DNA from: an uncultured Campylobacterales bacterium
Lineage (GTDB): Bacteria; Campylobacterota; Campylobacteria; Campylobacterales; QNZT01
NCBI GenBank assembly: GCA_964560425.1
Contig: CAZLLE010000103.1
Span: 21,025 to 85,024, forward strand
DNA length: 64,000 bases
Direction: 5' to 3'
The first letter of the stretch is position 1. The number at the start of each line of letters is the position of its first letter. Both the position numbers and the translations under genes were made by a program. A model generated the notes under the pieces. It did no database searches. It saw nothing but the letters and a program-made list of their open reading frames with translations, and had not been told where the DNA came from. Below, in pieces: positions 3,466 through 27,635 of the stretch.

Positions 3466-3726
3466 ATGAATCAGGTAGATAAAATCACATTAAAACAGTG
3501 CGAAGCAATTATAAATGAGGGACTAAACACTCTATCAAAAATAGATCAAGCATTAAATATAATTAAAAGGTTTCAACTCTTTGAAGAGGAGTATCCAAAC
3601 TTTGAAGATTATTGCCAATCAAAATGGAACATCAATGAAAAATATAACTATATTTTTATAGATAGCAAACTAAAACTTTTACAAACAAACAACTACAAAA
3701 GGAGCGACTATGAGTCAAGACAATGA
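3466..3726 (+). CDS. Small hypothetical protein (86 aa) resembling a phage/mobile-element helical domain
   Basis: ATG 3466 has an SD. LKQCEAIINEGL...FEDYCQSKWNI resembles the L-x-x-C-E-x-x-I...F-E-D-Y-C-x-x-x-W pattern I recall from phage proteins. Overlaps the kinase start by 17 nt. Confidence 0.6.
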   Translation: MNQVDKITLKQCEAIINEGLNTLSKIDQALNIIKRFQLFEEEYPNFEDYCQSKWNINEKYNYIFIDSKLKLLQTNNYKRSDYESRQ

Positions 3727-7373: not shown

Positions 7374-7609
7374 ATAATCTTCTCTTTTTTAAGATAAGCG
7401 ATAATAAACTCACCAAATGTCAAATTTTGTTCTTCCAAAAAACGATTAACTTTCTCAAAATCCTCTTCTACTAGATTTACAGCTTTTGCCTTAAAGACTT
7501 TTTTACTTTTTTTGGTAAACTTTCTTTTCTCTTTTGGCTCTTTTATCTCACTATCTTTAATAGGTGTAGCTTTTTTAATTTCACGATTGTTTATATTTAA
7601 TTTTTTCAT
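7370..7609 (-). CDS. Small ParG-like ribbon-helix-helix DNA-binding protein
   Basis: 79 aa; basic flexible N-terminus, then KAVNL-VEEDFEKVNRFLEEQ-NLTFGEFIIAYL (strand-helix-helix). 4-nt overlap with parA. Confidence 0.55.
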   Translation of the reverse strand: MKKLNINNREIKKATPIKDSEIKEPKEKRKFTKKSKKVFKAKAVNLVEEDFEKVNRFLEEQNLTFGEFIIAYLKKEKII

Positions 7610-8226
7610 CTCAAAAGTTCCAATATTTCATTTTTAAGTTTTAAAGAGGCTGTTTCAATAGGGGCATAAGTTTTTCTAAAGAGTCCACCCTCTGCTAAAA
7701 GATCTGATATAGATACTTTTCTATTCTCCAAAGTCTTTATAGCTCCAGAGTAGGCAAATGATGTAAAAGAGATATTTTCAGAGTTTAAATCCTCCAACAT
7801 TTGAGATAACATACCCCCAGCAATATCAATCTCTTTTTGATTTCTCACTTCATTTACCAAAAAAAGTACACTTTTAGCCCAATTATACATACACAAAGAT
7901 ACCGCACTATCGGCAGTAGTTTTAAGACTTCTATACCCTACTCTAGTCATGAATACAAATAGATCAATATCCAATGTCCTAAGCCTCTCATCCAAAAAAC
8001 TACGAGCATCTAAAATAATAAAATCTTCATCTAACTTCTCAATAATATTGGGAAGATTAGTATGAGGAAGGATATTTATAGTCCTAGCACTATTAAAATC
8101 TTCTGCATCTTGGTAGGGATCAAGATTAAGAATAACACTATTTTCCAGTTTATTACAGAGAATATTAGCAATAGTACTCTTACCAACACCACCTTTGACA
8201 CTAGCAATAAGAATGATTTTCTGCAT
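7606..8226 (-). CDS. Short ParA/ParF-type ATPase
   Basis: Deviant Walker A KGGVGKST, LNLDPYQD, FIILD Walker B; 206 aa with no N-terminal HTH. Confidence 0.85.
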   Translation of the reverse strand: MQKIILIASVKGGVGKSTIANILCNKLENSVILNLDPYQDAEDFNSARTINILPHTNLPNIIEKLDEDFIILDARSFLDERLRTLDIDLFVFMTRVGYRSLKTTADSAVSLCMYNWAKSVLFLVNEVRNQKEIDIAGGMLSQMLEDLNSENISFTSFAYSGAIKTLENRKVSISDLLAEGGLFRKTYAPIETASLKLKNEILELLR

Positions 8227-10423: not shown

Positions 10424-12063
10424 GACTTAGATACTTCTTTCACGGACTCTTTTTGTGCCTTTGCTTTTGCAAAAATTGAGTTTACATAATATTGTTGCAA
10501 TACAGAAAACATATTATTTACAAACCAATAAAGTGTCAAACCAGCAGGAAATGTTACAAAGAAAAATGTAAAAATTAGTGGTAAAAACTTCATAATTTTC
10601 TCTTGCATTGGATCAGTAAAGTTTGTAGGTGTAATTCTTTGTTGCCAAAACATACTAGCACCCATCAAAACAGGCAATACATAATATGGATCCATCACAG
10701 AAAGATCATGAATCCAAGCAGTCCATGGAGCATGTTTAAGCTCAATAGAGTTTAATAATACCCTATAAATTGCAAAGAAAACAGGAATTTGCATCAACAT
10801 AGGCAGACAACCACCCATAGGATTTGCACCCTCTTTTTTATAGAGTTCCATCATCTTAGCATTCATCTTTTGAGGATTACCCTTATGATCTGCTTGAATC
10901 TGCTTGATTTTTGGAGAGAGTTCTTTGAGCTTATTCATAGATACCATACCCTTATAAGTAAGAGGATATAAAATAAATCTAATAATAAGAGTAATCAATA
11001 CAATCGACCAACCCCAGTTACCTACAATACTATGAATATATTTCAAAAAGATAAAAACAGGCTTAGCAATAAAAGTAAAAAATCCATACTCTATAATAGA
11101 GGTCAAACGAGGATCAATAGAGTCTAAACGATCATACTCTTTTGGACCAATATAACCATTTACGCTTAGATCACTATTTCCTTTAATAAAAATAAGAGGA
11201 TCACTTTCGCTATCTTTTGTCACAAAAGCATTCATACTATTTTCAAAATCATAAAAAGCTGTCGTATAATATTTATCTGAAGCAGCAACAATAGTTGCAC
11301 CATTAAAAACTTCATTACCTTCAGCATCACCATCTGCTATTGTTTCTGTAGCTTCATTTGCTTTTCTTACAATTACACCCTTAAAAGTATACATATCAGA
11401 CTCTACATCAGGTCTAAAACCAGGACTCATGAAATAGTCTTGATTTTCACTAAGCTTAACATTAACATTATAACTTCCATTTTCATTAAAAGAGATAGTT
11501 TTTGTAACTGTAGTTTTACTAAGCTTTTGAGTCAAAACTATAGAAGCCTTTGAGTTTGTTACATCAAGATCCGAAACACTTGCAGTATAAGGAACTTTAA
11601 AAGCCTCCGCGTTTAATGCAGCATCAGAAAAACGAATCTCTAAAGGTTTTAGAGAGTTATTTGCAATAACATTTGGATAACCACCATCTTTAGAGTTTTT
11701 AAAACGCTCCATAAGTACTTCAAACTTTGAAATTCTACCAAGCTCATCAAACTGAGCAATAAAATCTTTAGATTTAACTGTAGATATTATATTACTTTGT
11801 GAAACTGGTGCACTATTTACTGCTGTATCAGCACTATTAGTTACAGGGGCTTGTGTAGCACTATCAGTTGGAGCAATAGGTGCAGCTGTATTACTGCTTT
11901 GCGATAGTGGTTGTGATTGTGTAGTAGCATTTTGATCATGCATCACTCTTTGTGGCTTTGGCATTATAAAATCATATACTATAAAAAATAGTAAACTTAG
12001 TGCAACTGCTAGCAACATTCTCTGTTGTTGGCTCATCTTATCAATCAAGGGTATCCTTTTCAA
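10420..12063 (-). CDS. yidC: Membrane protein insertase YidC
   Basis: YGFFTFIAKP, GNWGWSIV, NPMGGCLP, QIPVFFAIY, PAGLTLYW. Confidence 0.96.
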   Translation of the reverse strand: MKRIPLIDKMSQQQRMLLAVALSLLFFIVYDFIMPKPQRVMHDQNATTQSQPLSQSSNTAAPIAPTDSATQAPVTNSADTAVNSAPVSQSNIISTVKSKDFIAQFDELGRISKFEVLMERFKNSKDGGYPNVIANNSLKPLEIRFSDAALNAEAFKVPYTASVSDLDVTNSKASIVLTQKLSKTTVTKTISFNENGSYNVNVKLSENQDYFMSPGFRPDVESDMYTFKGVIVRKANEATETIADGDAEGNEVFNGATIVAASDKYYTTAFYDFENSMNAFVTKDSESDPLIFIKGNSDLSVNGYIGPKEYDRLDSIDPRLTSIIEYGFFTFIAKPVFIFLKYIHSIVGNWGWSIVLITLIIRFILYPLTYKGMVSMNKLKELSPKIKQIQADHKGNPQKMNAKMMELYKKEGANPMGGCLPMLMQIPVFFAIYRVLLNSIELKHAPWTAWIHDLSVMDPYYVLPVLMGASMFWQQRITPTNFTDPMQEKIMKFLPLIFTFFFVTFPAGLTLYWFVNNMFSVLQQYYVNSIFAKAKAQKESVKEVSKS

Positions 12064-12391
12064 ATTTTTTGATTAAATAGTAATTATTGTGATCTTTTGG
12101 AACGAGGTAGAATTGTACTACAATATCTTTTTTATCTTGTTGATTATGACTACAAATTTTTTTACATCTACAATCTTTTTTGACTATAGGATAGTCAATA
12201 CCACCATCAAAAAGTTGATTACATTTTAATATTCGTATAATTGTATAAAAAATTGCTTTGAAAAATGAGTTTTTTTGAAACTGCCACTTAGCATACTCAG
12301 AGCAAGTAGGATAATAACGACAACTCCCATAACCAAGAAGTGTAAAAAATTTTTGGTAGATTTCTAAAAACTTAAGAGCGATTTTTTTCAT
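12041..12391 (-). CDS. yidD: Membrane protein insertion efficiency factor YidD
   Basis: CRYYPTCSEYA, RILKCNQLFDGGIDYP; position in operon. Confidence 0.92.
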   Translation of the reverse strand: MKKIALKFLEIYQKFFTLLGYGSCRYYPTCSEYAKWQFQKNSFFKAIFYTIIRILKCNQLFDGGIDYPIVKKDCRCKKICSHNQQDKKDIVVQFYLVPKDHNNYYLIKKFEKDTLD

Positions 12392-12729
12392 CTCTTTTTT
12401 AAAGCACCTACCCTTTTGAATGCGTACTGCATATCTTTTTGTAATTTTTTATAATCACAAGTCAAAATCTCTTTTTTTGCCACAAAAACAAAAACACCAT
12501 CTTCAAGATTATCTTGAAAATCCAAAAAACTAGCTCTTAATCTTCTTTTTGAGAAATTACGCTCAACTGCGTTTCCCACCTTTTTACTAGCAGTAAAACC
12601 AACTTGCTTTTTATCTAGTTTTTTGTAGAAGAGTAAGAGACTATTTGTGTGAATTTTTTTGGCTCTATTATATATAAAGCTAAACTCTTTTGTAGTTTTT
12701 AGAGTATTATAACTACCTAAACTGCTAAT
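12388..12729 (-). CDS. rnpA: RNase P protein component; probable ATT start overlapping rpmH
   Basis: Frame is open to ATT 12729 ([20 protein letters not shown]...[23 protein letters not shown]). No ATG/GTG/TTG before the RNR motif. Confidence 0.88.
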
Positions 12730-12851
12730 CTTTTTCTACCCTTAGCTCTTCTAGCTCTAATTACAGCTCTACCATTTTTAGTCTTCATTCTTGTTCTAAA
12801 ACCATGAGTTCTCTTCTTTGGCGTATTATGTGGTTGAAACGTTCTTTTCAT
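12717..12851 (-). CDS. rpmH: 50S ribosomal protein L34
   Basis: Translated by hand: [44 protein letters not shown]. Confidence 0.97.
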
Positions 12852-12889
12852 TTCGATATCCTTCTGATTTGTTATATTTTTAGTGGCGG

Positions 12890-12895
12890 ATTTTA
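12890..12895 (-). promoter_or_regulatory. Probable -10 box (gcTAAAAT) of the rpmH operon
   Basis: TAAAAT on the minus strand about 40 nt upstream of the rpmH ATG. Confidence 0.5.
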
Positions 12896-12961
12896 GCTTA
12901 TTAATGCTTAAAATCGCTATAAACTAGCACTCTTTAGAAAAATTTTACCTATTTGGCAAAT

Positions 12962-13417
12962 TTAAACCAAACTCTTCTCCATCTTATCCACAATTTCTCT
13001 TTGCAAGAGTTCCCTATCTTCATTTTTGATATCTAGTACATGAATATATAGATCATTATTACTTTTGAGCTCAATCGTAATTGTTCCGGGAGTTAGGGTG
13101 ATTGCATTTGCCAAAAGTAGCTTATCATAATCACTTTTTAGTGAAGTTTTTAGTTTTACTATTCCTGTATTTATAGGGAGTTTTGGGTTTAGTACAATAC
13201 GGGCTACTTCAATATTTGATTTGATTAAACTTTTGAAAAATAGAGGTATAAATTTGATATATTTTTGGGCAAAAAGTTTTAGATCTATATCTTGTTTTGG
13301 AGTAAAAAAATGAGCAATGATATAAGATACTACAGCTCCTACAAACAGCTCTTGGATATCAAGAGAGTTTGTGAGACCAATCCACACTATAAAGAGAAGT
13401 ATAAATTTTCCTAACAT
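12962..13417 (-). CDS. mnhE: MrpE/MnhE-type antiporter subunit (MbxA/MbsA equivalent)
   Basis: LIKSNIEVARIVLNP...INTGIV, LANAITLTPGTITI, LYIHVLD. Confidence 0.92.
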   Translation of the reverse strand: MLGKFILLFIVWIGLTNSLDIQELFVGAVVSYIIAHFFTPKQDIDLKLFAQKYIKFIPLFFKSLIKSNIEVARIVLNPKLPINTGIVKLKTSLKSDYDKLLLANAITLTPGTITIELKSNNDLYIHVLDIKNEDRELLQREIVDKMEKSLV

Positions 13418-13809
13418 TATTTATCCTTTGGCATATATAAAAAATTATTACTATCAGAGTTTGCCCAGATACAATCATCTTCCAATTTTAGTGAATCAGG
13501 AGGGCATACATCAGTACATAAACTACACCAGCAACATCTTCCATAATCTATTCTTGGGATACAACCACTACCATTTTTTGGATTTTTTTCCTCATCTATA
13601 GTAATCATATCAATAGCATCATTCATGCATACATCTTGACAATTTGCACAACCGATACAAGCTTCAAGAACATTTGTATGAAAACCTCTATATCCATCTA
13701 TTTTCTGCTTTTTTTCATCAGGATAGCAGATAGTATTTGGATGCTCAAACAGCTTTTGTACTGCACTAAAAGGGGATACAACCCCTTTTACATCTAAATC
13801 AAATTTCAT
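13417..13809 (-). CDS. mbxN: NuoI-like 2x[4Fe-4S] subunit (MbxN/MbsN)
   Basis: CIGCANCQDVC and CCWCSLCTDVCP; TICYP and YRGFH; ATG 13809 with SD GAGG. Confidence 0.85.
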   Translation of the reverse strand: MKFDLDVKGVVSPFSAVQKLFEHPNTICYPDEKKQKIDGYRGFHTNVLEACIGCANCQDVCMNDAIDMITIDEEKNPKNGSGCIPRIDYGRCCWCSLCTDVCPPDSLKLEDDCIWANSDSNNFLYMPKDK

Positions 13810-13813
13810 CTTT

Positions 13814-14929
13814 TTACCTCTCAATCTCTGGTGGACATATTCCCAATGAGTTCATAATCATGGCTACATTTGAAAGCTCTTCGTCTATTAATAAATTTTC
13901 TAATAGAGTAAATCCATGAATTAAAGATGGTCCTTTTACCTGCATTCTTCTTATCTTTTCACTTCCATCTCCTGCCATATAATATCCAAACTCACCTCTT
14001 GCTGATTCTACACTTACAAATGTATCATCTTTTGGAAGTTTAAATTTTCGATGTTTTGGAATTTTTTGCATAATTAATCCCTCTTTTGGCATTTGAGCTA
14101 TTACTTGTCTTAAAATTTTTATAGACTCTCTTATCTCTGATCTTCTTACTAAAGCTCTCGCATATACATCACAACCTTCAAAAGTTGGGATTTCAAAATC
14201 AAGATTTTCATACATTAGATAAGGGTTATCTCTTCGCACATCTCGTTTGATTCCACAACCTCTCAAAGCTTGACCAACATATCCATTTTTGAGTGCTTCA
14301 TCTTTATTAATAACTCCCACACCTATGGCTCTTTTTTTAAATGAGCCATTATCAAAAAAGATATTGTCATATTGAGGTAATTTCTTCTCAAAATAGTCCA
14401 AAAATTGGCTCAATCTATCCAAAAATCCATCTGGTAACTCTCGTCTTACCCCTCCTGGATAAATATACATATGATAAACTCTTCCACCTGTTAGCTCTTC
14501 AAAAAGATCAAGAATCAAATCTCTATCATATATACTCCATTGAGCAACTGTTCCAAGACCAACAGAACCACTTTGACCACCCATCCACAACATTTGAGCA
14601 GCTATTCTTGACATCTCAAGAACCATAGTTCTAATATATTTGGCTTTTTCACTTATCTCAATTCCTGCCAAACTCTCAACAGCACTTGCAAAATTCTCTT
14701 CATTTGGATCGGGTTCAGGTACACAAATTCTACATACAATTGTAAAAGCTTGTATAATTGTTCGTCTCTCAATCAATTTTTCAAACCCACGGTGAAGATA
14801 ACCTACATGAGTTCTAGCCCCTTTGATAGTTTCACCCAAAAGATCAAGCTCTACACTCATATTTCCTGTAATACCGGGATGCTGAGGACCATGATAAATT
14901 TTTATTAATCTATTTTTACTTTGTTGCAT
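13814..14929 (-). CDS. mbxL: NuoD/hydrogenase large-subunit homologue without NiFe ligands (MbxL/MbsL type)
   Basis: GPQHPG, GYLHRGFEK, RICVPEPD, ESARGE, C-terminal ICPPEIER; both hydrogenase CxxC motifs are CxxE. Confidence 0.82.
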   Translation of the reverse strand: MQQSKNRLIKIYHGPQHPGITGNMSVELDLLGETIKGARTHVGYLHRGFEKLIERRTIIQAFTIVCRICVPEPDPNEENFASAVESLAGIEISEKAKYIRTMVLEMSRIAAQMLWMGGQSGSVGLGTVAQWSIYDRDLILDLFEELTGGRVYHMYIYPGGVRRELPDGFLDRLSQFLDYFEKKLPQYDNIFFDNGSFKKRAIGVGVINKDEALKNGYVGQALRGCGIKRDVRRDNPYLMYENLDFEIPTFEGCDVYARALVRRSEIRESIKILRQVIAQMPKEGLIMQKIPKHRKFKLPKDDTFVSVESARGEFGYYMAGDGSEKIRRMQVKGPSLIHGFTLLENLLIDEELSNVAMIMNSLGICPPEIER

Positions 14930-15452
14930 TTAACTCTTTTAACCTCTTCGCTTCTGCTCTTCTTCTTTTTGTCTCTGCTTTTACATCTTTGTTGTCTTCT
15001 CTACCTGCTCTAAAATTGAAATGTTCATTTACATAAGCCAAAGTATCAAACTCTCTTCTTAGAGGTGGAGTATTATTCCAATTTTCAAGAGCAAAATCAT
15101 ATAGAGTTGGATTTCCAATAAAATCTATTCCATACATCTCATGAAGATCTCTCTCCATCACCTCAGCTTGTGGAAATATATTTAATAGCGTTGGTAACTG
15201 AGTATCTTCTCTACTAACATTAATCTCTACCATAAGATTTTTATCTCTTTTTTCAGTTGTCAAAATATAATTTAGAGAAAAAATCTCATCTTCTATCCAA
15301 TCTGCACATGCTATTTGAGCTAAAGTTATAAACGATCCATTTGAAGATATAAAACTAATGGTGCTAATTAGATCTTTTTCTTCTATTTTTATCTTCCATA
15401 GAGTAGTAGTTTTCTCTATTACTTCATATTTATCTTTCAAAAAATCTATCAT
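14916..15452 (-). CDS. mbxK: NuoC-like subunit (MbxK/MbsK)
   Basis: IACADW, AEVMERDLHEMYGIDFIGNP, PPLRREF. Confidence 0.85.
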   Translation of the reverse strand: MIDFLKDKYEVIEKTTTLWKIKIEEKDLISTISFISSNGSFITLAQIACADWIEDEIFSLNYILTTEKRDKNLMVEINVSREDTQLPTLLNIFPQAEVMERDLHEMYGIDFIGNPTLYDFALENWNNTPPLRREFDTLAYVNEHFNFRAGREDNKDVKAETKRRRAEAKRLKELNATK

Positions 15453-16069
15453 TAATTCATTCCTGCAAAATTCTCTTCATAAGTAGGAGCTATATTGTCA
15501 CCAAAAACTTTCTCTTGATTTTCTTTATAAAACTCTCTATTGTCTCTATATTTAATATAACCTGCCTCCTCTTTTGAGTTTTTAATGCTATCTTGAAGCT
15601 TAACAAAACCTTCAATCAACGCTTCAGGACGAGGCATACAACCATTTACATACATATCTACAGGAAGATAATCTTCAAGCTTTTTAATGGTGTTATAACT
15701 ATCCCAATACATTCCGCCATTAATCGTACAGCTCCCCAAAGCTATCACATATTTTGGTTCATTCATCTGCTCATAACTTCTTATTACTCTTTTTAGAGTT
15801 TTGTATGAACAATATCCTGATACTATCAATATATCTGCCTGTCTAGGAGTAGCCACTCCAACTACTCCCAATCTCTCAATATCATATCTACTTGTAAAAG
15901 TAGGAGGCATCTCAATAGCCCCACAACCAGTACCATAAGCCAATACAAACATACTCTTTGATCGAAACCAATCAACCGCTTTTTGAATTACACTTTGAGT
16001 ACTTTTTATCGCATGTTCTTCACTATCCAAAACTTTTTGATAATCTATAAATCCCTCTTGCATCTTCAT
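15452..16069 (-). CDS. mbxJ: NuoB-like [4Fe-4S] subunit (MbxJ/MbsJ type)
   Basis: GTGCGAIEMPP, RYDIERLG, PRQAD, GSCTINGG, PVDMYVNGCMPRPEA. Confidence 0.85.
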   Translation of the reverse strand: MKMQEGFIDYQKVLDSEEHAIKSTQSVIQKAVDWFRSKSMFVLAYGTGCGAIEMPPTFTSRYDIERLGVVGVATPRQADILIVSGYCSYKTLKRVIRSYEQMNEPKYVIALGSCTINGGMYWDSYNTIKKLEDYLPVDMYVNGCMPRPEALIEGFVKLQDSIKNSKEEAGYIKYRDNREFYKENQEKVFGDNIAPTYEENFAGMN

Positions 16070-16072
16070 CCT

Positions 16073-16951
16073 TTAAACAAACAATAAGCCCACAACTGCA
16101 ATAGCACTTGGGACTCTTACTAGAAATTCAACACTCTGAATAGTTGTAAATCTAGCATAAACATTTCCTACCAAAACAGCAGCCAAAAATAGTATAAAAG
16201 TTTTTACAACCAACTCAAATAGATTACTAGCTCCACCAAAAAATAGATTTACCATTAAAAGTAGTTTCGCAAATGAAAATATTGCACTTTGAGACAAAGC
16301 CAAAGCAAAAAACTTACCACTAAATTCAGTAGCAGGACCACTATAAACCTCTTGAGGAGCTCCAACTACATCAAAAGGTGATTTTCCCATAAATCCCAAG
16401 AATGAGATAAACGCTCCAATAAAAAGAAGAGGATGAGAAAAAGCATTATAAGTTTCACTCTGAGATGCCATAATCTGTCCAATATCAGCACTTCCAGCCG
16501 ATATCATAATCCCTATAGAGGCGATATAAAAAGGCAATTCTAATCCAATAAGTCTAGTCAATCCTCTCGTAATTCCCATCACACCAAATGGATTTCCATT
16601 ACTTCCTATTCCCATAGCATTACCCAAAGGTCCTAAAACCATGAGATATAAAACTACAATCAAATTTCCATATTGACTAAATCCAACCAAATATTGACTA
16701 TCATTTAAATATGGAATAAAAAGCACAGTCATGATCGCACCAGTAGCCATAATAATTGGTCCAGCATAAAACATCCAACCAAAAGAGGTTGAGTTCTCTT
16801 TCATAAAAAGCTTAATACTGTCAAAAAATGATTGAGCAATAGATGGACCAAAACGCCCATGAACTCTTGCACTAATATTTCTATATAATCCATAATATAA
16901 AAAACCAAAAAAGTAAGCCAAAAGGATCATAAAAATAGTATCTAATATCAT
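16073..16951 (-). CDS. mbxM: NuoH-like membrane subunit (MbxM/MbsM)
   Basis: ARVHGRFGP...QSFFDSIKL, PFDVVGAPQEVYSGPATEFSG, multiple transmembrane helices. Confidence 0.87.
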   Translation of the reverse strand: MILDTIFMILLAYFFGFLYYGLYRNISARVHGRFGPSIAQSFFDSIKLFMKENSTSFGWMFYAGPIIMATGAIMTVLFIPYLNDSQYLVGFSQYGNLIVVLYLMVLGPLGNAMGIGSNGNPFGVMGITRGLTRLIGLELPFYIASIGIMISAGSADIGQIMASQSETYNAFSHPLLFIGAFISFLGFMGKSPFDVVGAPQEVYSGPATEFSGKFFALALSQSAIFSFAKLLLMVNLFFGGASNLFELVVKTFILFLAAVLVGNVYARFTTIQSVEFLVRVPSAIAVVGLLFV

Positions 16952-18570
16952 GACGCAACTCCTATAAATAGTAATATTGTAAAAAATAGTATAATGACTA
17001 AACCAACATGGGAGCTACTCAAACTATAAAATCTTCTTACTATCATTGAAATATCTTGTGTAACATTCACAACTCTCTGCCAAATAGCACTTGAACTATT
17101 TTTTAAGATAACTTTAATAAAACTAATTCTCTTTAACTCTTCTCCTATTCCATAACCATAATGAAGATTGATATCTTTATCAGGCACTTCACCACAATAA
17201 CTAATATCAAATCTATCTCTTACATTTACCACTCTATTTTTCATAGATATTACCATGGCTAAAACAACTACAAATACCACACCAAAAATAGCCATAAGAG
17301 CTCCACCATTAAATGAAGCAAATGATGAATTTAATTCAAATAAAGAGCTATAAGAGGTCGTATCTAATCCTAAGGAAGACAAAATTGGATTAAATTCTAA
17401 TGTACCTAGAGATGGTAAAATACCAAGAACAATTAAAATTGTTGCCCCTACAAATTGTGGAATATAAAATCCCAATGGAATTTTTCTATACTTATCTTTT
17501 ATCTGTGTTGGTTGCCCCAAATAGATACCATATATCAATTTATAACAATACAAAAACGCAGATGCAGAACTAAACATCACAGCAGCCAAAAGTAGACCTT
17601 TTTTTTCTTCAAGCAGTGTAGTATATATCAAAAACTTACTATTAAATCCACCAAGAGGAGGCATACCAGCAAGAGCAATAATACCTATGAGAAGTAATAT
17701 AAAAAGTGTTGGATAGTGATATAATAATCCTCCAAGCTCACTAAATTTTCGTCTACCTGTAATATATATAATTGAGGCAATATTGATAAATAACAAAAGT
17801 TTTACAAATGTATGTATTACAGTATGATAAAGGGCTGCTTCAACTCCACTTCCACTTAAAATTGCCAATGAGGTAACAATATATCCAAGCTGAGCAATTG
17901 ATGAATAAGCTAATAACCTTTTGAGATCATCTTGTGATATCGCTTTAAAAGTAGCAACAATAGAGGTAATAACACCAAACCATGCAACAATATCAAAAAG
18001 TATTTCATCTAATAACTCATATCCAATAATTTTTGTAAAAAATAGAATAAATAGAAAAATTCCAGCTTTGGAGATTATTGCACTCAAAATTGCACTAAAA
18101 ACATGGTTTGCCTCTTCATAAGAGTCTACAACCCAATAATGAAAGGGAACCACACCAGATTTAATAAATATAGTAATCAACAATAAAATAGATATTGGCA
18201 TATATAGATAGTGAGGAATTTTGGAGATATCAATCTCACTATAGATAACACTTTGACTAAAACCATAAATCAAAGCAATAGCAGCCAAAAGAGCAAAACC
18301 AGCAGCCAAATTAAAAATTATATATTTTTGCAAAGTCTTTATATTTGCATTCTTGGAAATTATAAAATAACTACTCCAACTCATAACTTCCCATCCAATA
18401 AAAAGCGTAATCAAATCACTAGCATAAAATATAAAACCAAGTGCAGTTAAAAGCAAAATATGTAATCTAATATCTCTATTTTGATTTTTTACAAAAAACA
18501 GAGATATAAAAACAATTAAACTAAGTCCAAAAAATAGATTTCCTAAGTGTGTCATTTCAAAATTAAACAT
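16948..18570 (-). CDS. Second MrpD/NuoL-M-N family antiporter-like subunit (MbxH' type)
   Basis: GWEVMS, KSGVVPFHYW, LAYSSIAQLGY, AGMPPLGGFNSK. Confidence 0.88.
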   Translation of the reverse strand: MFNFEMTHLGNLFFGLSLIVFISLFFVKNQNRDIRLHILLLTALGFIFYASDLITLFIGWEVMSWSSYFIISKNANIKTLQKYIIFNLAAGFALLAAIALIYGFSQSVIYSEIDISKIPHYLYMPISILLLITIFIKSGVVPFHYWVVDSYEEANHVFSAILSAIISKAGIFLFILFFTKIIGYELLDEILFDIVAWFGVITSIVATFKAISQDDLKRLLAYSSIAQLGYIVTSLAILSGSGVEAALYHTVIHTFVKLLLFINIASIIYITGRRKFSELGGLLYHYPTLFILLLIGIIALAGMPPLGGFNSKFLIYTTLLEEKKGLLLAAVMFSSASAFLYCYKLIYGIYLGQPTQIKDKYRKIPLGFYIPQFVGATILIVLGILPSLGTLEFNPILSSLGLDTTSYSSLFELNSSFASFNGGALMAIFGVVFVVVLAMVISMKNRVVNVRDRFDISYCGEVPDKDINLHYGYGIGEELKRISFIKVILKNSSSAIWQRVVNVTQDISMIVRRFYSLSSSHVGLVIILFFTILLFIGVAS

Positions 18571-19957
18571 TTCCTGCTCCTGCTAATAGTGATGAAGCAA
18601 CATTTTGACAAACACCCAAAAGATCATTAGGGAAAATACCAAAATAGACGATCATAGTCGCTAAAAAGGCTAAAACACTCTTTTTTAGTAGAGGTATTTG
18701 AATCAACTCTTTTTGTGAAGATTGTTGAGTAAGAGCTAAAAGTCTAAAGAAATAGACCGCCTCAACCAATGAAACAATCAAAATAACACCTATCATCATA
18801 TAAGCTTCTAATGAAGCTAAACCTTTTAAAATAGTAAGCTTGGCTATAAATCCACCAAATGGCGGTAAACCAAGAAGAGACAAAAATCCTATAGAGAATA
18901 TTAAGAGCAAAAATATAGATCTAAACTTACCAAAAATATCTACTTTTACACTATTGAATCTATCTTTGAGAATATCAAGAGCAAAAAAGAGCATCACTTT
19001 TGTAATGGAGTGTAAAGCTATCAAAAATATAGCTCCACTAACCACTGTTATATTTCCATATGATAGAGCAATAAATAAAACACCTATTTGTCCCAATGTA
19101 GAGTATGCAAATATTCGTTTCATATCTCTACTACTAAGAGCTGATAATTCAGAAATAGCAAATGATATAGCTCCTATAATTGCAACAAATAGTAAAAACT
19201 TTGGCTCTATTTTTAATGTATATGCAATATGAAAAAATAGAAAGATATAAGCTTTTGAAATAATCGCAGAAAATAGAGCATTGACTCTATTTTGACTAGC
19301 TTGATAAATATCTACTACCCAAAAATTGAGAGGAAAAATTTCGGCTTTGATTCCAAAGCCAATAAACAAAGACAGAAGAATCAAAAACTGAATATTTAAA
19401 TCCATTGAGCCAAATCTTTCACCTATTGTTACTAAGTTTAGAGTTCCAATATTTATATAGATACTCATAATAGCAATAAGAAGAAATATAGAAGCAACAG
19501 AACCAATTATCATATATCTTATTGCTCCACTATAAGCTTGTTTGTCCCTATTGAGCGAAGTAAGAATATAAGCTACAATACTCACTATTTCAAAAAAGAT
19601 ATAGATATTAAATATATCACCACTAAGAACCAATCCTAAAACACCACAAAGCAAAATATTACTCAAAATAAATATATCTTTTCTATTCTCATTTTGCAAA
19701 TTATAAATAGAGAAAATAAGCATAATAGATATAAATAGTATCACAAAAAATGCCGAAGCTTCATCAAATACAAATGAGATACTAAGAGCAGAATCAAAAG
19801 CTATATTTTCAACTAGAGGAGCAGAACTAACAAAACCTATAGCTAAAAATAGCAATAAAAGATTTACACCAATGGATATATATTTAAGATAATTTTTATA
19901 AAAAGGTGTCAAAAATGAAGCCAAAAGAGGAATAACCACAAAATATATTAGACTCAT
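18563..19957 (-). CDS. mnhD: MrpD/MnhD antiporter-like subunit (MbxH type)
   Basis: DIFNIYIFFEI, GIKAEIFPLNFW, AYSTLGQIG, LGLPPFGGFIAK. Confidence 0.88.
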   Translation of the reverse strand: MSLIYFVVIPLLASFLTPFYKNYLKYISIGVNLLLLFLAIGFVSSAPLVENIAFDSALSISFVFDEASAFFVILFISIMLIFSIYNLQNENRKDIFILSNILLCGVLGLVLSGDIFNIYIFFEIVSIVAYILTSLNRDKQAYSGAIRYMIIGSVASIFLLIAIMSIYINIGTLNLVTIGERFGSMDLNIQFLILLSLFIGFGIKAEIFPLNFWVVDIYQASQNRVNALFSAIISKAYIFLFFHIAYTLKIEPKFLLFVAIIGAISFAISELSALSSRDMKRIFAYSTLGQIGVLFIALSYGNITVVSGAIFLIALHSITKVMLFFALDILKDRFNSVKVDIFGKFRSIFLLLIFSIGFLSLLGLPPFGGFIAKLTILKGLASLEAYMMIGVILIVSLVEAVYFFRLLALTQQSSQKELIQIPLLKKSVLAFLATMIVYFGIFPNDLLGVCQNVASSLLAGAGNV

Positions 19958-20340
19958 CTACTCTCTCCTAACTCATCCATCTCATCTATTCTTAAATTAT
20001 TTGTCAATTTAAAATAGTTAATAACAAAAGATAGAGCCAAAGATAAAACAGCAATTGCAATTACAATAGTTGTCAAAATCATAGCTTGAGGCACAGGATC
20101 AACCATGTTTGAGCTAAATTTATCTACCTCTTTTGAAAGAATAGGAGCAACCTTTCCAACTTCAAAGTGCATTCCAATAAAATATATAAATAAACTAGCC
20201 TCTGCAATAGACAAAGAGAGAAATATCTTAAATAGATTTTTCTTACTCAATGCACCAATCAAACCAATAGTTAGAAGCAAAAAGGAACCAATAGTAATAA
20301 CACCATGTAAAAATGGTGTTTGATTAAAACTATCCAACAT
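19954..20340 (-). CDS. mnhC: MrpC/MnhC subunit (MbxG type)
   Basis: KKNLFKIFLSL, DPVPQAMILTTIVI. Confidence 0.92.
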   Translation of the reverse strand: MLDSFNQTPFLHGVITIGSFLLLTIGLIGALSKKNLFKIFLSLSIAEASLFIYFIGMHFEVGKVAPILSKEVDKFSSNMVDPVPQAMILTTIVIAIAVLSLALSFVINYFKLTNNLRIDEMDELGESR

Positions 20341-21040
20341 CTTTAATCCTTATAAAATATTCTACCAAAGCAGTTATTTCAGCAGAGACTTTGATACCTA
20401 CAAATATATATATCAGAGGTATCAATCCACCACTAAAAAGATCACCAACACTACCCAATGGCAAAAAATTACCAAAAAATCTATCAGCCAATAAAACACC
20501 CAAAATACCAACCAAAATAAATCCAGCTCCACTAAAAGATTCACAAAGAGTGATTATTTTGTGATTAAGTCTAAAATCATCATTTTTTGCCAAAAACATC
20601 AATAAAAAACCACTAGCAATAATCACACCACCTTGAAATCCACCTCCAGGGCTTAAGTGCCCATGAATAATAATATAAAAGCCAAAAAGAATAATAAGAG
20701 GAAATAAAACCTCTACACCTATCTTTAAAAGTCTATTTTCATAACTAAAAATATTACTTTTTTTGTTCATATTATCTAGCCCCAAACTAATACCAAAAAT
20801 CGATAAAAACAAAATAGTAACCTCTCCCAAAGTATCAAATCCCCTAAAATAGGTTACTACAGAAGTAACTGCATTTGCACTTTGGGTAGTAGATTCATTT
20901 ATATTCAACAATTCACTTCCCAAACTATTAGTAGTGCTAACATCAAAATTAAGTAAAATTGACAAAAGCAAAATAGTCATTAAAGATATTACAAGTGATA
21001 CAACAATAGTCTCTATCCTAATCTCTTTTTTTAGATTCAT
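20330..21040 (-). CDS. mnhB: MrpB/MnhB subunit
   Basis: NAVTSVVTYFRGFDTLGE, HGHLSPGGGFQGG. Confidence 0.92.
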   Translation of the reverse strand: MNLKKEIRIETIVVSLVISLMTILLLSILLNFDVSTTNSLGSELLNINESTTQSANAVTSVVTYFRGFDTLGEVTILFLSIFGISLGLDNMNKKSNIFSYENRLLKIGVEVLFPLIILFGFYIIIHGHLSPGGGFQGGVIIASGFLLMFLAKNDDFRLNHKIITLCESFSGAGFILVGILGVLLADRFFGNFLPLGSVGDLFSGGLIPLIYIFVGIKVSAEITALVEYFIRIKDVG

Positions 21041-21285
21041 TTTTTTAACTCCCTTCCTCTAATTTGAAGTAAAGTCACCAAAAGAACAACTCCACTAACT
21101 CCCGTACCAATCACCGCTTCAGTCAAAGCAACATCTGGTGCAGAAAATAGAAAAAATAGTATTACACTACCAAGACCAAACCCCATAAACAGAATAACAC
21201 TATGAGATAATTCCCGATTGGCAATAATAAAAATAGAGAGAGTTATCAAAGTAATAAATATAGATATTATAATTAATCCTATCAT
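21037..21285 (-). CDS. DUF4040 / MrpA C-terminal-like small subunit (MbxD type)
   Basis: APDVALTEAVIGTG; three hydrophobic helices. Confidence 0.88.
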   Translation of the reverse strand: MIGLIIISIFITLITLSIFIIANRELSHSVILFMGFGLGSVILFFLFSAPDVALTEAVIGTGVSGVVLLVTLLQIRGRELKK

Positions 21286-21596
21286 ACCTTCTCCTTCAAA
21301 TCATCAATTCCACTCTTATTCAAAAAACCTCTTTTTAGATAACTGCTTCTAGCAAGAATAGAGGATGAAAGAGGATTTGTAATCAGTATAAAAAAGCCCA
21401 ATAAAGATAGTTTAAACCACAAAGATGGTTCCCAACATATAGCACCTACAATCACCAAAAGAGTACCTAGAGTAGAAGCTTTTGTTCCTGCATGCATTCG
21501 AGTAATAGTATCTGGCATTCGTAAAAGTCCTAAAGAACTAATAACCAAAAGTAATGCACCAAGAAATATAAACATAAATCCCAAAAAATCAAACAT
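21282..21596 (-). CDS. mnhG: MrpG/MnhG subunit
   Basis: GLLRMPDTITRMHAGTKASTLG, TNPLSS. Confidence 0.92.
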   Translation of the reverse strand: MFDFLGFMFIFLGALLLVISSLGLLRMPDTITRMHAGTKASTLGTLLVIVGAICWEPSLWFKLSLLGFFILITNPLSSSILARSSYLKRGFLNKSGIDDLKEKV

Positions 21597-21846
21597 TATC
21601 TTCCTTTATTACATTAAAACGAGCAAAAATAATCGTACCAATAAAACCAATGAGTGCAAAAACAAATGCCACATCAAGATATATGCTATCTTTTATAGAG
21701 ACAGACAACAAAACCAAAAGTGATACTGCTATTATTCCCATAGTATCAAAAGCAACAACTCTATCACTCAAATTTGGACCTATTAGAAACCTAATAAATG
21801 CCAAAAATACTGCAAGCAAGATCAAAAAAAACAGAAATTCAACCAT
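21589..21846 (-). CDS. mnhF: MrpF/MnhF subunit
   Basis: RFLIGPNLSDRVVAFD, YLDVAFVFALIGFIGTIIFARF. Confidence 0.92.
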   Translation of the reverse strand: MVEFLFFLILLAVFLAFIRFLIGPNLSDRVVAFDTMGIIAVSLLVLLSVSIKDSIYLDVAFVFALIGFIGTIIFARFNVIKEDNV

Positions 21847-21963
21847 AACAAAACCTTAAAAAAATAGAAGTATAAAATAATGGCGATAATAGTAGCAAAA
21901 ACCACTCCATATCTAGGTAAGTTAAAATAATTAAGATATGATTTATATAAAAAGGGTCAAAAA

Positions 21964-24998: not shown

Positions 24999-25427
24999 AT
25001 GGTAGAGATAGATAAAAAATTACTAAATATATTGTTTAACTACAATTTTATCAATTTTGCCCTCTTATTTGGTTCTTATTCTAATAATACTCAAAAAGAG
25101 TTGAGTGATATTGATGTGGCTATTGGGGTAGATAAAGATATAGATATATTTATGATGGGTGAAATTATCGCTATATTGGAGGAGTGTTTAGGGAAAAGAG
25201 TTGATTTGGTTATTGTAAATGATCTATACAAAGAAAATTCTAAATTAGCCTTTAATATCACAAATAATCACAAACTTATATTTTGTAGGAATACTAAAGA
25301 GTATATAGAGTTCAAAACAAATAGTTTAAAATACTATTTTGATATGCGTTATATGTATGAAATGTTTGATAAAGAGCTCTTAAAAAGGTTGGATAATGGA
25401 ACTTTTGGAAAAACTAAAATCTCTTGA
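24999..25427 (+). CDS. mntA: MntA-type minimal nucleotidyltransferase antitoxin
   Basis: LFGSYSNNTQKELSDIDVA (GS-x10-DxD), RVDLV. Confidence 0.88.
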   Translation: MVEIDKKLLNILFNYNFINFALLFGSYSNNTQKELSDIDVAIGVDKDIDIFMMGEIIAILEECLGKRVDLVIVNDLYKENSKLAFNITNNHKLIFCRNTKEYIEFKTNSLKYYFDMRYMYEMFDKELLKRLDNGTFGKTKIS

Positions 25428-25800
25428 AGAGAATGTAAAAATACTCAAAGAGATTAGAAATAGTGTCACTAAAGAGGAGTTGAAATTAAACAAAAGATAT
25501 GAATGGGAGATAAGATATGGTCTTTTTGAATCCATTCAAATAGTTATAGATATCTCATGTAAAATTTCATCAACTTACAACTTGGGAAATCCTAAAAGTT
25601 ATAAAGAGTGTGTAGAACTTTTGGCAAAACATAAATATATTAGCCAAAAAATGTTACCAAAACTTGTATCTATGATTGGACTTAGAAATTTATTAGTTCA
25701 TGAATATGTGGAGATAGATAATGATAAATTATATCAATTTTTGGATTTTTTGGGCGATTTTATCTCTTTTGTAGATGAAATAAAAGATACAAATATATAG
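25396..25800 (+). CDS. hepT: HepT/DUF86 HEPN RNase toxin
   Basis: GLRNLLVHEY (R-x4-H-x-Y); overlaps the nucleotidyltransferase gene. Confidence 0.88.
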   Translation: MELLEKLKSLEENVKILKEIRNSVTKEELKLNKRYEWEIRYGLFESIQIVIDISCKISSTYNLGNPKSYKECVELLAKHKYISQKMLPKLVSMIGLRNLLVHEYVEIDNDKLYQFLDFLGDFISFVDEIKDTNI

Positions 25801-25844: not shown

Positions 25845-26624
25845 TTATTCTTTCAACTCTCCATCCAATTCATACTTTTTCAAATATCCTCTTGGTGTCA
25901 AAACTAATCCATTTTTTGTCATTCTTGTACTTGAATTACATACGATAATAAGTGTACTCATGGAAACTAACTCATTATCAATATCTTTTGCTACTAGATC
26001 AGAGGAGGAGGTTACTGTGATTTTTTCTGTATCTCTTCCTACATTTGAGGCTACTATTACTATTCTTTCATCTATTTGACTTAAAGAAGATAGAAATTGT
26101 TGGTATGGTTTGATTCTTGATTTTGATTTTGGATTATAAATTCCTATTACAAAATCTGCCTCTAGGGAATTTTTGACTCTTTTATCAATTACGGCTATGT
26201 CAGTTAGACGATCTGATAGGGAGATTACAGCAAAGTCTTGGCTGATTGGAGCTCCTATTCTACTCGCTGCGGCAAAAAATGAGGTTACTCCAGCTATTGA
26301 GATCATCTCTATTTCATCCCAACAATCTTTTTCATCCATAAGTTCTACTACAAGAGTTGCCATAGCAAATACATTTACATCTCCATTTGAGATTAGGGCG
26401 GTGGTTTTTCCAGCTCTTGCATACTCTATAGCTTTATCACATCTCTCTATCTCTTTGGTCATTCCTGATTTATATAGCTCTTTATCTCCGATGAACTCTT
26501 TTAGCTCTTTAGCATATTTGGTGTAGCTAACTATCATCTCTGAATCTGCTAATGCCTCTTTAGCCTCTGTTGTTAGGTATTTTGTGCCACCTGCTCCGCT
26601 TGATACTATGTATAATCTTTTCAT
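25845..26624 (-). CDS. cbiH: Precorrin-3B C17-methyltransferase
   Basis: GMTKEIERC, ISNGDVNVFAMA, DFAVISLSDRLT, IYNPKSK, TPRGY. Confidence 0.9.
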   Translation of the reverse strand: MKRLYIVSSGAGGTKYLTTEAKEALADSEMIVSYTKYAKELKEFIGDKELYKSGMTKEIERCDKAIEYARAGKTTALISNGDVNVFAMATLVVELMDEKDCWDEIEMISIAGVTSFFAAASRIGAPISQDFAVISLSDRLTDIAVIDKRVKNSLEADFVIGIYNPKSKSRIKPYQQFLSSLSQIDERIVIVASNVGRDTEKITVTSSSDLVAKDIDNELVSMSTLIIVCNSSTRMTKNGLVLTPRGYLKKYELDGELKE

Positions 26625-27635
26625 CTATATTGCTCCTGCTATTGTTATTTCTCTGTTGTAGACTTCTTTTTTTATTATTAACTCTCTATATTTTGATACC
26701 AAAATGGCAGATGGTTCTGCCACTCCTTTTAATCCAAAAAACTTTTTGGCTTGTGAATGGCTAAAATTTTCTTCTAATTTATTGATTTGATCTTTTTCAA
26801 AAAATTGAATATCAAAGTTATATTTTGAGGCAAACTCTAATAACCCCTTTTCATCTTTTTTGGCTTCAAATGAACCGATATTTTTGATTTGATTAAACTC
26901 CAAATTATACTTTTCCAAAAACCACTTTACACCCTCTTCTATCACCCTTGCACTTACTCCACGATTACACCCTATTCCCAAAAACAGATCTGGTTTTATA
27001 TGTAGATGAGAAGATTTAAAAGGTGTTATATTTACACAAAGTCCTTCATGAGGCTTATCTACCAATTTTATATTTTTGTACTCTTTAATCTTCTCAAATA
27101 TTGATGGATATGTCCAAACTTTTACCTCTTTTTTATTGATTAGGGCATTTGATATTGGGGCTAAGTGTTTGATATTTTCTATTTTCAGATTTTCCTCTTT
27201 GGCAAATAGATCAAAAGCTAGAGAGGATGTTTGATCTGTAGCAGTAGTAAGAAAATTGATACAGTTTGGAATATTAAGACTCAAATACTCCGCTAGTTCA
27301 TTTGCACCACCAAGATGCCCACTCAAAAGAGGTAAAACCCTAGTAAGATCAAGATTGATAATCAATACTGCTGGATCAGTTGTTTTATCTTTTAAAAGTG
27401 GTGCAATTTTTCGCACAACTGCCCCAGTTGCTAATATAAATATGATAGCATCAAATTTGCTCCAAGCAGGAGCTAAAATATCATCTAATTTATTAAAAGT
27501 CTTTAGATTCTCTCCATCATATTTTAATCCACTTTTAGAAAAAATAGCAACTTCATAGTTACCCAAATACTCACACAATTTTGAGGCACTATCTAAGCTT
27601 GGCTGATTAATCGTAACTATTGCTATACTACTCAT
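26625..27635 (-). CDS. cbiG: Cobalt-precorrin-5A hydrolase
   Basis: ATGAVVRKIAP, KTTDPAVL, LLSGHLGGANELA, TTATD, GIGCNRG, GVAEPSA. Confidence 0.92.
   Translation of the reverse strand: MSSIAIVTINQPSLDSASKLCEYLGNYEVAIFSKSGLKYDGENLKTFNKLDDILAPAWSKFDAIIFILATGAVVRKIAPLLKDKTTDPAVLIINLDLTRVLPLLSGHLGGANELAEYLSLNIPNCINFLTTATDQTSSLAFDLFAKEENLKIENIKHLAPISNALINKKEVKVWTYPSIFEKIKEYKNIKLVDKPHEGLCVNITPFKSSHLHIKPDLFLGIGCNRGVSARVIEEGVKWFLEKYNLEFNQIKNIGSFEAKKDEKGLLEFASKYNFDIQFFEKDQINKLEENFSHSQAKKFFGLKGVAEPSAILVSKYRELIIKKEVYNREITIAGAI

Follow-up and report, generated by a model that had tools for sequence, protein, structure and literature searches.

The DNA considered here is a 64-kb stretch of contig CAZLLE010000103.1 (assembly GCA_964560425.1) from an uncultured Campylobacterales bacterium; the whole stretch of 64,000 nucleotides is called the window below. 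Between positions 12,962 and 21,846 the window carries an operon of 13 genes that, judged from the sequences of the products, very probably encodes a complex-I-like respiratory enzyme that belongs, as a bacterial representative, to the MBS family (formerly MBX). The assignment is carried by gene content, by conserved cluster ligands and by conserved residues along the ion paths. MBS is a known kind of system, regarded as an evolutionary intermediate between hydrogenases and complex I, and the window operon is a new bacterial member of it. MBS is not known to have been characterised outside hyperthermophilic archaea. An earlier note on this DNA, written from the letters alone, had placed the genome in the Campylobacterota, and the nearest homologues (85–97% identity), which come from Sulfurovum, Sulfurovaceae and Campylobacterales metagenome-assembled genomes (MAGs), agree with that placement.

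The operon lies on the minus strand (21846→12962), with the gene order MrpF-G-DUF4040-B-C-D-D′/A, NuoH-B-C-D-I and MrpE, as read from the list of open reading frames (ORFs) and from Pfam. The Pfam families, in the same order, are MrpF_PhaF, PhaG_MnhG, MbhD (DUF4040), MnhB (plus a weak MbhE), Oxidored_q2, two copies of Proton_antipo_M, NADHdh, Oxidored_q6, Complex1_30kDa, Complex1_49kDa, a 2×[4Fe-4S] ferredoxin family and MNHE, with E-values for the 13 products from 1e-6 to 1e-69. Adjacent genes overlap by 1–14 nt at 11 junctions and are separated by a 3-nt gap at one, which is the layout of a translationally coupled operon. An independent gene call of the source contig (ENA ERZ27262694, k141_446567) has the same 13 genes, with later starts for J (two codons later, 203 aa) and for N (at MKFDL, 130 aa). 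The ORF list, Pfam and the gene call thus agree on the row of 13 overlapping or abutting genes on one strand that had been described from the letters. No NuoE, NuoF, NuoG, NuoA or NuoJ gene is present within the cluster or adjoining it in any of these three sources, and the claimed lack of a NuoEFG input module therefore stands. A stand-alone Mrp Na+/H+ antiporter was considered and rejected, as NuoH/B/C/D/I-like genes lie between the MrpD-like genes and the MrpE-like gene in overlapping frames. The features are as follows, where 6u8y denotes chains of the Pyrococcus furiosus MBS structure and 6cfw those of the P. furiosus membrane-bound hydrogenase (MBH).

21847..21963: intergenic region and presumed promoter, 117 bp between the operon and the divergent ung (ORF layout)
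21589..21846, minus strand: MbsB-like (MrpF family), part of the predicted Na+ path; Pfam MrpF_PhaF 3e-18; 6cfw_B 56 bits, 6u8y_B 44.5 bits
21282..21596, minus strand: MbsC-like (MrpG family); Pfam PhaG_MnhG 6e-24; 6u8y_C 57 bits, next best 51
21037..21285, minus strand: MbsD-like (DUF4040/MbhD); Pfam MbhD 2e-17; 6u8y_D 33 bits, next best 27
20330..21040, minus strand: MbsE-like (MnhB plus weak MbhE domain); Pfam MnhB 1e-23, MbhE 1e-5; NCBIfam matches are MrpB-type models
19954..20340, minus strand: MbsG-like (MrpC/NuoK family); Pfam Oxidored_q2 2e-17
18563..19957, minus strand: MbsH-like antiporter-type protein (MrpD family), 464 aa; Proton_antipo_M; 6u8y_H 177 bits against 115 for MrpD and 109 for MbhH
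16948..18570, minus strand: MbsH′-like second antiporter-type protein (MrpA-derived), 540 aa, with C-terminal HL/TM region; 6u8y_X 192 bits against 126 for MbhH and 123 for MrpA
16073..16951, minus strand: MbsM-like membrane anchor (NuoH family); Pfam NADHdh 5e-49; 6u8y_M 129 bits against 68 for HycD and 62 for MbhM
15452..16069, minus strand: MbsJ-like (NuoB family), proximal [4Fe-4S]; 6u8y_J 204 bits, about 51% identity; NDH-1/complex I (NdhK/PSST) about 132, MbhJ 95
14916..15452, minus strand: MbsK-like (NuoC family); Pfam Complex1_30kDa 5e-21
13814..14929, minus strand: MbsL-like (NuoD/[NiFe]-hydrogenase large-subunit family), 371 aa, with neither NiFe nor quinone site; 6u8y_L 314 bits, E 1.5e-92; complex I 49-kDa about 216, MbhL 140, HycE 100
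13417..13824, minus strand: MbsN-like (NuoI family), two [4Fe-4S], presumed ferredoxin entry; 6u8y_N 71 bits against at most 44 for NuoI
12962..13417, minus strand: MbsA-like (MrpE family), last gene instead of first; Pfam MNHE 1e-39

L, J, H′, H, M, N, C, D and B, nine products in all, were compared with chains across the whole Protein Data Bank (PDB). For eight of these nine, all except B, the best match was a chain of P. furiosus MBS (6U8Y). The score in bits against MBS, followed by that against the next-best family, is 314/216 for L, 204/132 for J, 192/126 for H′, 177/115 for H, 129/68 for M, 71/44 for N, 57/51 for C and 33/27 for D.

Several of the residues that mark MBS are found in L and J. 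Of the four NiFe cysteines, only C85 and C385 remain in MbsL (PMC7684303, PMC8165549). Window L has RICVPEPD at residues 67–74 and ICPPEIER at its C-terminus, which align without gaps, residue for residue, to RIC85VPEPD and NC385PPDIDR of P. furiosus MbsL; both of the motifs that the earlier note had matched to MbxL, RICVPE and CPPE, are therefore real matches. Glu stands in place of the two lost NiFe cysteines, and the CxxE...CxxE pattern is present in 18 of 19 bacterial L homologues, the other one having Ala for the first Glu. In MbsJ, the proximal [4Fe-4S] cluster has three Cys ligands, C28, C93 and C123, and a shortened loop, with C25 near but too distant to bind, and a C25A mutant of P. 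furiosus is fully active (PMC7684303). The window J motif AYGTGCGAIEM corresponds to AFC25TGC28GGIEM of P. furiosus, the alignment to 6u8y_J being ungapped there, and the cluster cysteines of window J are C49, C114 and C144 only. The position of C25 is Gly in all 66 bacterial loci in which the motif is covered, and the only other Cys of J, C87, varies among C, L and A across the bacterial loci. It follows that the bacterial branch cannot build a four-Cys proximal cluster. We read this loss of Cys, seen by comparing homologous sequences, as independent support for a three-Cys catalytic site with an open iron.

Window N has eight Cys in two CxxCxxCxxxC motifs, CIGCANCQDVC and CCWCSLCTDVCP, which align to the ligands of MbsN. 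The proton-channel and Na+-path residues of MBS have been listed (PMC8165549), and relative to MBS the charged axis of H and H′, the MbsD Glu and the Na+-path Asp, Arg and Pro of B and C are conserved. Specifically, B keeps the acidic and Arg residues of SDRVVAFD and YLDVA, the equivalents of D30, R31, D36 and D60; C keeps RMPD..R and TNP, at the positions of MbsC D31, R35 and P83; and the 82-aa D product keeps the Glu of APDVALTEA, which is MbsD E58. The channel positions conserved in H′ are E128, K217, K248, H336 and K399, and those in H are E138, K250, H330 and K393. At the position of MbsH E219, window H has Lys, which we take to be the usual residue of antiporter-type subunits.

The name under which such proteins are annotated, NADH-quinone oxidoreductase subunit D, implies another enzyme, namely a ferredoxin-dependent quinone reductase of the complex I or NDH-1 type. 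L does pass the NCBIfam NuoD equivalog model NF004739, with 394.9 bits against a cutoff of 360, every named homologue is called NuoD, and NuoEFG-less variants of complex I exist in Campylobacterota. Nevertheless, we hold a quinone reductase to be very improbable. The quinone-binding His and Tyr are absent from L, Thr replacing His38 (in GPQHPGITG) and Val replacing Tyr87 (in RICV, where the NuoD type has R(L)DY), in complex I numbering; the tandem Cys-Cys of NuoB is Gly-Cys in window J; genes for NuoA and NuoJ are missing; the membrane arm is of the Mrp type, including MrpE, MrpF and MrpG; for L and J, MBS chains outscore those of complex I by about 100 and about 70 bits, respectively; and NuoD-type sequences form a separate group in the tree described below. 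A group 4 membrane-bound [NiFe] hydrogenase of the MBH, Ech or Hyf type, evolving or consuming H2, is scarcely credible at all. The overall Mrp-plus-NuoBCDHI architecture is that of MBH, and the N-terminus of L has a weak Pfam match to NiFeSe_Hases (5e-4, below cutoff), but window L has RICVPE and ICPPE where a hydrogenase has RxCGxC (L1) and DPCxxC (L2), with two of the four Cys replaced. Moreover, L scores only 140 bits with MbhL against 314 with MbsL, the four-Cys proteins form a group of their own, and no hyp maturation genes are present nearby. By these motif tests, both complex I and hydrogenase are essentially excluded. The view that the operon is of the MBX/MBS type and neither hydrogenase nor complex I, put forward in the earlier note, is thus upheld by the PDB matches, the CxxE...CxxE pattern of MbsL, the three-Cys cluster and the tree position of L.

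A HMMER scan of 1.84 billion cluster representatives with L returned only three full-length clusters, at the 50%-identity level, above 340 bits (45–49% identity); the next scores fall to about 35% identity, as is typical of NuoD-like proteins. The named representatives among the more distant 50%-identity clusters are one Zestosphaera protein and one Heimdallarchaeota protein. Sorting of 143 full-length relatives by the residues at the four NiFe positions gave three groups. Window L and every bacterial relative fall in one group, with CxxE/D...CxxD/E, together with P. furiosus MbsL and a few of the representatives; the other groups are the NuoD-type proteins (D...V/I) and the four-Cys hydrogenases. 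In a neighbour-joining tree with 200 bootstraps, in which most references are unlabelled and labelled Ehr sequences are not among them, the bacterial L proteins form a clade (98.5% bootstrap) that is sister to representative P0121 (99%). P0122, P0123 and P0211 join next (67%) and then P. furiosus MbsL (58%), apart from the NuoD-type and four-Cys groups. That is, L falls with MbsL, and not with four-Cys hydrogenases or NuoD-type proteins.

The distribution of the operon was followed by a scan of one genome per GTDB species, the carriers being the nearest relatives of window L. The scan gave 80 loci, with 61–88% identity to window L. About 55 of the 80 are from Campylobacterota (Sulfurovum, Nitratifractor, Sulfurimonas, Sulfuricurvum, Hydrogenimonas, an Arcobacteraceae MAG and the isolate Sulfurovum sp. 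CS9), and about 22 are from Chromatiales (Thiocystis, Chromatium okenii, C. weissei, Allochromatium warmingii, A. palmeri, Thiococcus, Imhoffiella, Thiorhodococcus, Thiocapsa, Thiohalocapsa and Ectothiorhodospiraceae MAGs). Two Spirochaetales MAGs and one MAG labelled ‘Fibrobacter’ make up the rest, and protein searches gave two further carriers, Sulfurospirillum sp. 1612 and Thioflavicoccus mobilis. The isolate labels in record titles read as sulfidic sources, such as sulfidic caves, Guaymas and Zodletone. The operon is therefore present in the phylum to which the earlier note had assigned it, and it is widespread, Chromatiales included, rather than peculiar to the window genome. All 13 genes were found in 37 loci, which span Sulfurovaceae, Sulfurimonadaceae, the Arcobacteraceae MAG, Chromatiales purple sulfur bacteria and the ‘Fibrobacter’-labelled MAG. 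These 37 loci have the same gene order, with the MrpE-like gene always last, which argues for selection on the whole module.

Some of the other loci depart from this layout. N and A were not found downstream of L in L055, L073, L074, L080, L051 and L057, which belong to Chromatium okenii, C. weissei, a Thiocystis violascens MAG and Allochromatium warmingii; the operon may be truncated or split there. In L055, a Type ISP restriction-modification gene (11115–14138, minus strand) directly follows L, and C. okenii LaCa has two L copies on separate contigs. Extra genes between L and N in some loci were considered as operon members and rejected as unrelated insertions. Inside the operon of Thiocystis minor there is, by eye, a HicB/HicA-like pair (L050:11127–11512); a Sulfurimonas MAG has a 671-aa insert, PAS-domain-like by eye (L030:11181–13196); another MAG has an inserted ORF of 337 aa (L031:11154–12167); and in L071 several kb separate M, J and K.

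All of the named L homologues are annotated as NADH-quinone oxidoreductase subunit D. Because the NF004739 cutoff is passed, the whole bacterial clade is named NuoD automatically. The misnaming is systematic and inflates the tally of complex I among sulfur bacteria, and metabolic reconstructions accordingly count the bacterial MBS-type complex as complex I.

Two kinds of genes recur beside the operon, and only the first of them is suggestive as to function. In six Campylobacterota loci a pyridine nucleotide-disulfide oxidoreductase of about 450 aa adjoins it, on either side and on either strand (L012:537–1895, L022:1610–2962, L023:1585–2937, L026:12018–13364, L032:12147–13514 and L036:2678–4051). 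The protein has the active-site motif VPCGIPY, and its best PDB relatives are coenzyme A (CoA)-disulfide, CoA-persulfide and NADH-persulfide reductases, including Pyrococcus enzymes. We take this family to be that of NSR; in Thermococcales, NSR is a soluble sulfur reductase that is regulated together with MBS and is its partner in the response to sulfur. The adjoining reductase is a hint of a sulfur link, not proof of one, and no such CoA-disulfide/persulfide (NSR-like) reductase is present in the 64-kb window. Genes for methyl-accepting chemotaxis proteins also recur near the operon, likewise in six loci.

Several observations weigh against assignment to MBS or against a role in sulfur reduction. 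The MrpF-like B subunit is an exception to the chain matches, its score with MBH (56 bits) being slightly above that with MBS (44.5), and the comparison with MBS chains extends to nine of the 13 subunits. The D product is without the Trp-rich C-terminal dimerisation tail (W90/W91/W94) of P. furiosus, and H′ covers positions 65–611 of the 613 of NCBIfam NF006419, about 65 N-terminal residues being absent. The nodes that join the bacterial clade to MbsL have only 58–67% bootstrap, in a neighbour-joining tree with unlabelled references. The carriers are mainly sulfur oxidisers and not classical sulfur reducers, which suits a reverse or another role equally as well as the forward one, there is no sulfur gene in the 64-kb window itself, and all-against-all clustering of the flanking ORFs of the 80 loci gave no universally conserved partner. 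As to the missing tail, the P. furiosus homodimer involves the Trp-rich C-terminal tail of MbsD together with the HL helix of H′, a structural feature of MBS; the tail is an archaeal structural peculiarity and no catalytic requirement.

How the bacterial complex would work can be proposed from the archaeal enzyme. P. furiosus MBS carries out ferredoxin-dependent reduction of polysulfide and dimethyl trisulfide, an activity that is lost on ferricyanide treatment and restored by Fe2+ (PMC7684303). By analogy, we infer the donor, the sulfur substrate and the direction of the bacterial complex as follows. The cytoplasmic arm, made of J, K, L and N, would be mounted on the NuoH-like anchor M. The Mrp-derived membrane arm would comprise two antiporter-type proton channels (H and H′), a small proton path formed by D, G and E, and a sodium module formed by B, C and A. 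A low-potential carrier, ferredoxin or possibly flavodoxin, would dock at N, and electrons would pass through three [4Fe-4S] clusters to the proximal cluster in J. With three Cys ligands, that cluster has one open iron, which would cleave S–S bonds of polysulfide or other sulfane sulfur, as in the P. furiosus enzyme. Both H+ pumping, through H and H′, and Na+/H+ exchange, in the distal module, would be driven by the free energy released. We lean somewhat towards this forward direction, in which electrons run from ferredoxin to sulfane sulfur and the reduction is coupled to ion export. In a Sulfurovum-like bacterium, the complex could dump surplus reduced ferredoxin on the abundant zero-valent sulfur with conservation of energy, the surplus arising, for example, from H2, from stored carbon or from pyruvate and 2-oxoglutarate:ferredoxin oxidoreductases (PFOR/OGOR) working oxidatively under anoxia. 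Respiration or detoxification of polysulfide with low-potential electrons, as suggested for this bacterium in the earlier note, is thus plausible by analogy.

The same complex might run the other way: the H+/Na+ gradient would lift electrons from the level of sulfide or polysulfide (about −270 mV) to that of ferredoxin and so supply the 2-oxoglutarate and pyruvate synthases of the reductive tricarboxylic acid (rTCA) cycle as well as nitrogenase. The great majority of the carriers oxidise sulfur (Sulfurovum, Sulfurimonas, Sulfuricurvum, Nitratifractor and many Chromatiaceae), which would suit this direction, and a putative Mrp-Mbx complex in the Riftia symbiont is expressed together with the rTCA cycle rather than the Calvin cycle, its direction being unknown to its authors (PMC11636981). 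Energy conservation in the forward reaction, given two pumps, amounts to about 41 kJ per 2 e− (PMC8165549), which is close to the uphill cost; the enzyme should therefore operate near equilibrium, and reverse operation is thermodynamically reasonable. The related Ech, Rnf and complex I are known to reverse. We still consider reverse operation unlikely, for no reversible S–S bond formation at an open proximal iron is known, Chromatiaceae use the Calvin cycle and so are not covered by the rTCA argument, the Endoriftia complex is missing from the 120 homologues closest to the Thiocystis protein, and the adjoining NSR-like reductase in six loci points to sulfur reduction. The scaffold could also serve another acceptor, either an organic persulfide or disulfide (of CoA or another low-molecular-weight thiol) or NAD(P)+ via a soluble partner, as once proposed for MBX. 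That the catalytic chemistry rests on one archaeal enzyme only leaves room for such an acceptor, the CoA-disulfide/persulfide reductase gene that adjoins six of the loci would fit it, and the OvoA/EgtB-like thiol-histidine synthases encoded in the window mean that unusual thiols may be present. In addition, N best matches the NCBIfam model PRK13984 (611 positions) over positions 6–131 only, so that longer relatives carry an extra domain, presumably a GltD-like NAD(P)-binding module in Thermotogae. The operon itself, however, is without an NAD(P)-binding or flavin module, N has only 130–135 aa, no partner gene is conserved across the loci, and the three-Cys cluster and MbsL motifs correspond precisely to those of the sulfane reductase. 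We regard a different acceptor as rather improbable, and retain reduction of sulfane sulfur by ferredoxin as the working proposal.

The bacterial MBS branch is compact and well conserved, and it occurs in dozens of species-level genomes of sulfur bacteria from vents, caves and lakes. Its cultured carriers include Sulfurovum sp. CS9, Sulfurospirillum sp. 1612, Thiocystis, Chromatium, Allochromatium, Thiococcus and Thioflavicoccus; with such mesophilic, cultivable hosts, the question is experimentally tractable. The finding is of interest because the mis-annotated clade is broad, its three-Cys cluster invariant, its hosts largely sulfur oxidisers and some of them cultured. Were ferredoxin linked to zero-valent sulfur in either direction, the complex would be an unaccounted energy-conserving step in the bacterial sulfur cycle and would matter for the way in which rTCA autotrophs keep their reduced ferredoxin in balance or acquire it. 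Were the reverse direction to apply, Campylobacterota and Chromatiaceae would have in it a supplier of reduced ferredoxin, so far overlooked, for nitrogen fixation and the reductive TCA cycle. As a related possibility in purple sulfur bacteria, the complex might account for a classical observation to which no enzyme has so far been assigned, namely that stored sulfur is reduced in the dark while storage carbohydrate is fermented. We found no literature that ties Mbx or MBS to Campylobacterota, Epsilonproteobacteria, Sulfurovum or Sulfurimonas, in a search that left out most subscription journals. The earlier note knew of no characterised MBS in this lineage, which holds for Campylobacterota reports; a bacterial precedent does exist in a gammaproteobacterial symbiont (PMC11636981). 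Two further papers with bacterial mentions of Mbx were set aside, as they concern different complexes.

The operon is flanked downstream by rpmH-rnpA-yidD-yidC-jag-mnmE and upstream by the divergent ung, plus glnS. Its G+C content, about 0.30–0.33, matches the rest of the window, the overall level being about 0.31, and thus gives no sign of recent import. A promoter scan of the minus strand from 21869 to 21960 found three weak hexamer pairs, the chance level for AT-rich DNA, and a terminator scan, likewise of AT-rich DNA, found nothing above chance. The window context is of the housekeeping kind and uninformative: mnmE, jag, yidC, rnpA, ung, glnS, cbi genes, nhaD, nadB, uvrC, uvrA and metH.

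Other parts of the window also call for mention. At 51578–54855 one protein joins a formylglycine-generating-enzyme (FGE)-sulfatase domain to an S-adenosylmethionine (SAM) methyltransferase, the architecture of an OvoA-like 5-histidylcysteine sulfoxide synthase, and is followed by a class I/II aminotransferase gene; a second FGE-sulfatase-family protein, EgtB/PvdO-like, is encoded at 36705–37916. These genes suggest ovothiol- or ergothioneine-type thiol-histidine biosynthesis in a Sulfurovum-like organism. An NhaD-type Na+/H+ antiporter gene (39516–40883) would point to active sodium cycling. A protein with an McsB-like protein arginine kinase (ATP:guanido phosphotransferase) domain (3710–4750; 153 bits, below the family cutoff of 385) seemed unexpected for the phylum. 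Two small overlapping ORFs of 142 and 134 aa (24999–25800) have, by eye only, the look of a nucleotidyltransferase plus HEPN (MNT/HEPN-type) toxin-antitoxin pair. Cobalamin is represented by an anaerobic-type biosynthesis block (cbiH, cbiG, cbiF and cbiET-like; 25845–29496) and by the B12-dependent methionine synthase MetH (60425–63904). The product of 47211–50285 is a hybrid histidine kinase of 1024 aa that carries a NIT (nitrate/nitrite-sensing) domain. At the thresholds used, Pfam and NCBIfam gave nothing for the sizeable ORFs, up to 830 aa, at 44693–47185, 5799–7373, 5153–5815, 7606–8226 and 58808–59941.

Among known systems, PsrABC of Wolinella and other Campylobacterota shares with the window complex the phylum and possibly the polysulfide substrate, but is an unrelated, periplasm-facing molybdenum-bis-pyranopterin guanine dinucleotide (Mo-bisPGD) enzyme that is quinol-fed and has neither ferredoxin nor an Mrp module. 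Complex I and NDH-1 (Nuo, Ndh) have a homologous Q-module (NuoB, C, D, H and I) and homologous antiporter-like subunits. In contrast to them, the window complex is without NuoA, NuoJ, NuoEFG, the tandem Cys and the quinone His and Tyr, has the MrpE/F/G sodium module, and would, in the MBS architecture, have its peripheral arm at the opposite end of the membrane arm. P. furiosus MBH (6CFW) is similar in plan, with an Mrp-derived arm, a NuoBCDHI-like module, ferredoxin as driver and a link to Na+. It differs in having one antiporter-type subunit, four NiFe Cys and a four-Cys proximal cluster, where the window complex has two, two vestigial and three, respectively, and its scores (L 140 bits, J 95 bits) are far below those of MBS.

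The ‘putative Mrp-Mbx complex’ already noted in Candidatus Endoriftia persephone, the Riftia symbiont (PMC11636981), is likewise an Mbx-type complex in a mesophilic, sulfur-oxidising rTCA host; it is gammaproteobacterial, is likened here by its description and lies outside the 120 closest relatives of the Chromatiaceae protein. The nearest known system is P. furiosus MBS itself. The two share 13 subunit types, the order B-C-D-E-G-H-H′-M-J-K-L-N, RICVPEPD and CPP(E/D)I(E/D)R in L, eight Cys in N, the three-Cys proximal cluster and the proton-channel and Na+-path residues, and neither has a quinone or NiFe site. The window complex differs in being bacterial and, to judge from its relatives, presumably mesophilic, with about 42% identity in L and 51% in J, and the MrpE-like A gene is last in its operon and first in the archaeal one. 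Window J has Gly for the non-ligating C25, the position of MbsH E219 is Lys, D is without the Trp-rich tail, H′ is about 65 residues shorter at the N-terminus, and N has 130–135 aa where the archaeal protein has 208; the bacterial hosts, moreover, are sulfur oxidisers with no SurR-type regulatory context. Judged by the alignments, these differences leave the predicted catalytic core of the enzyme untouched.

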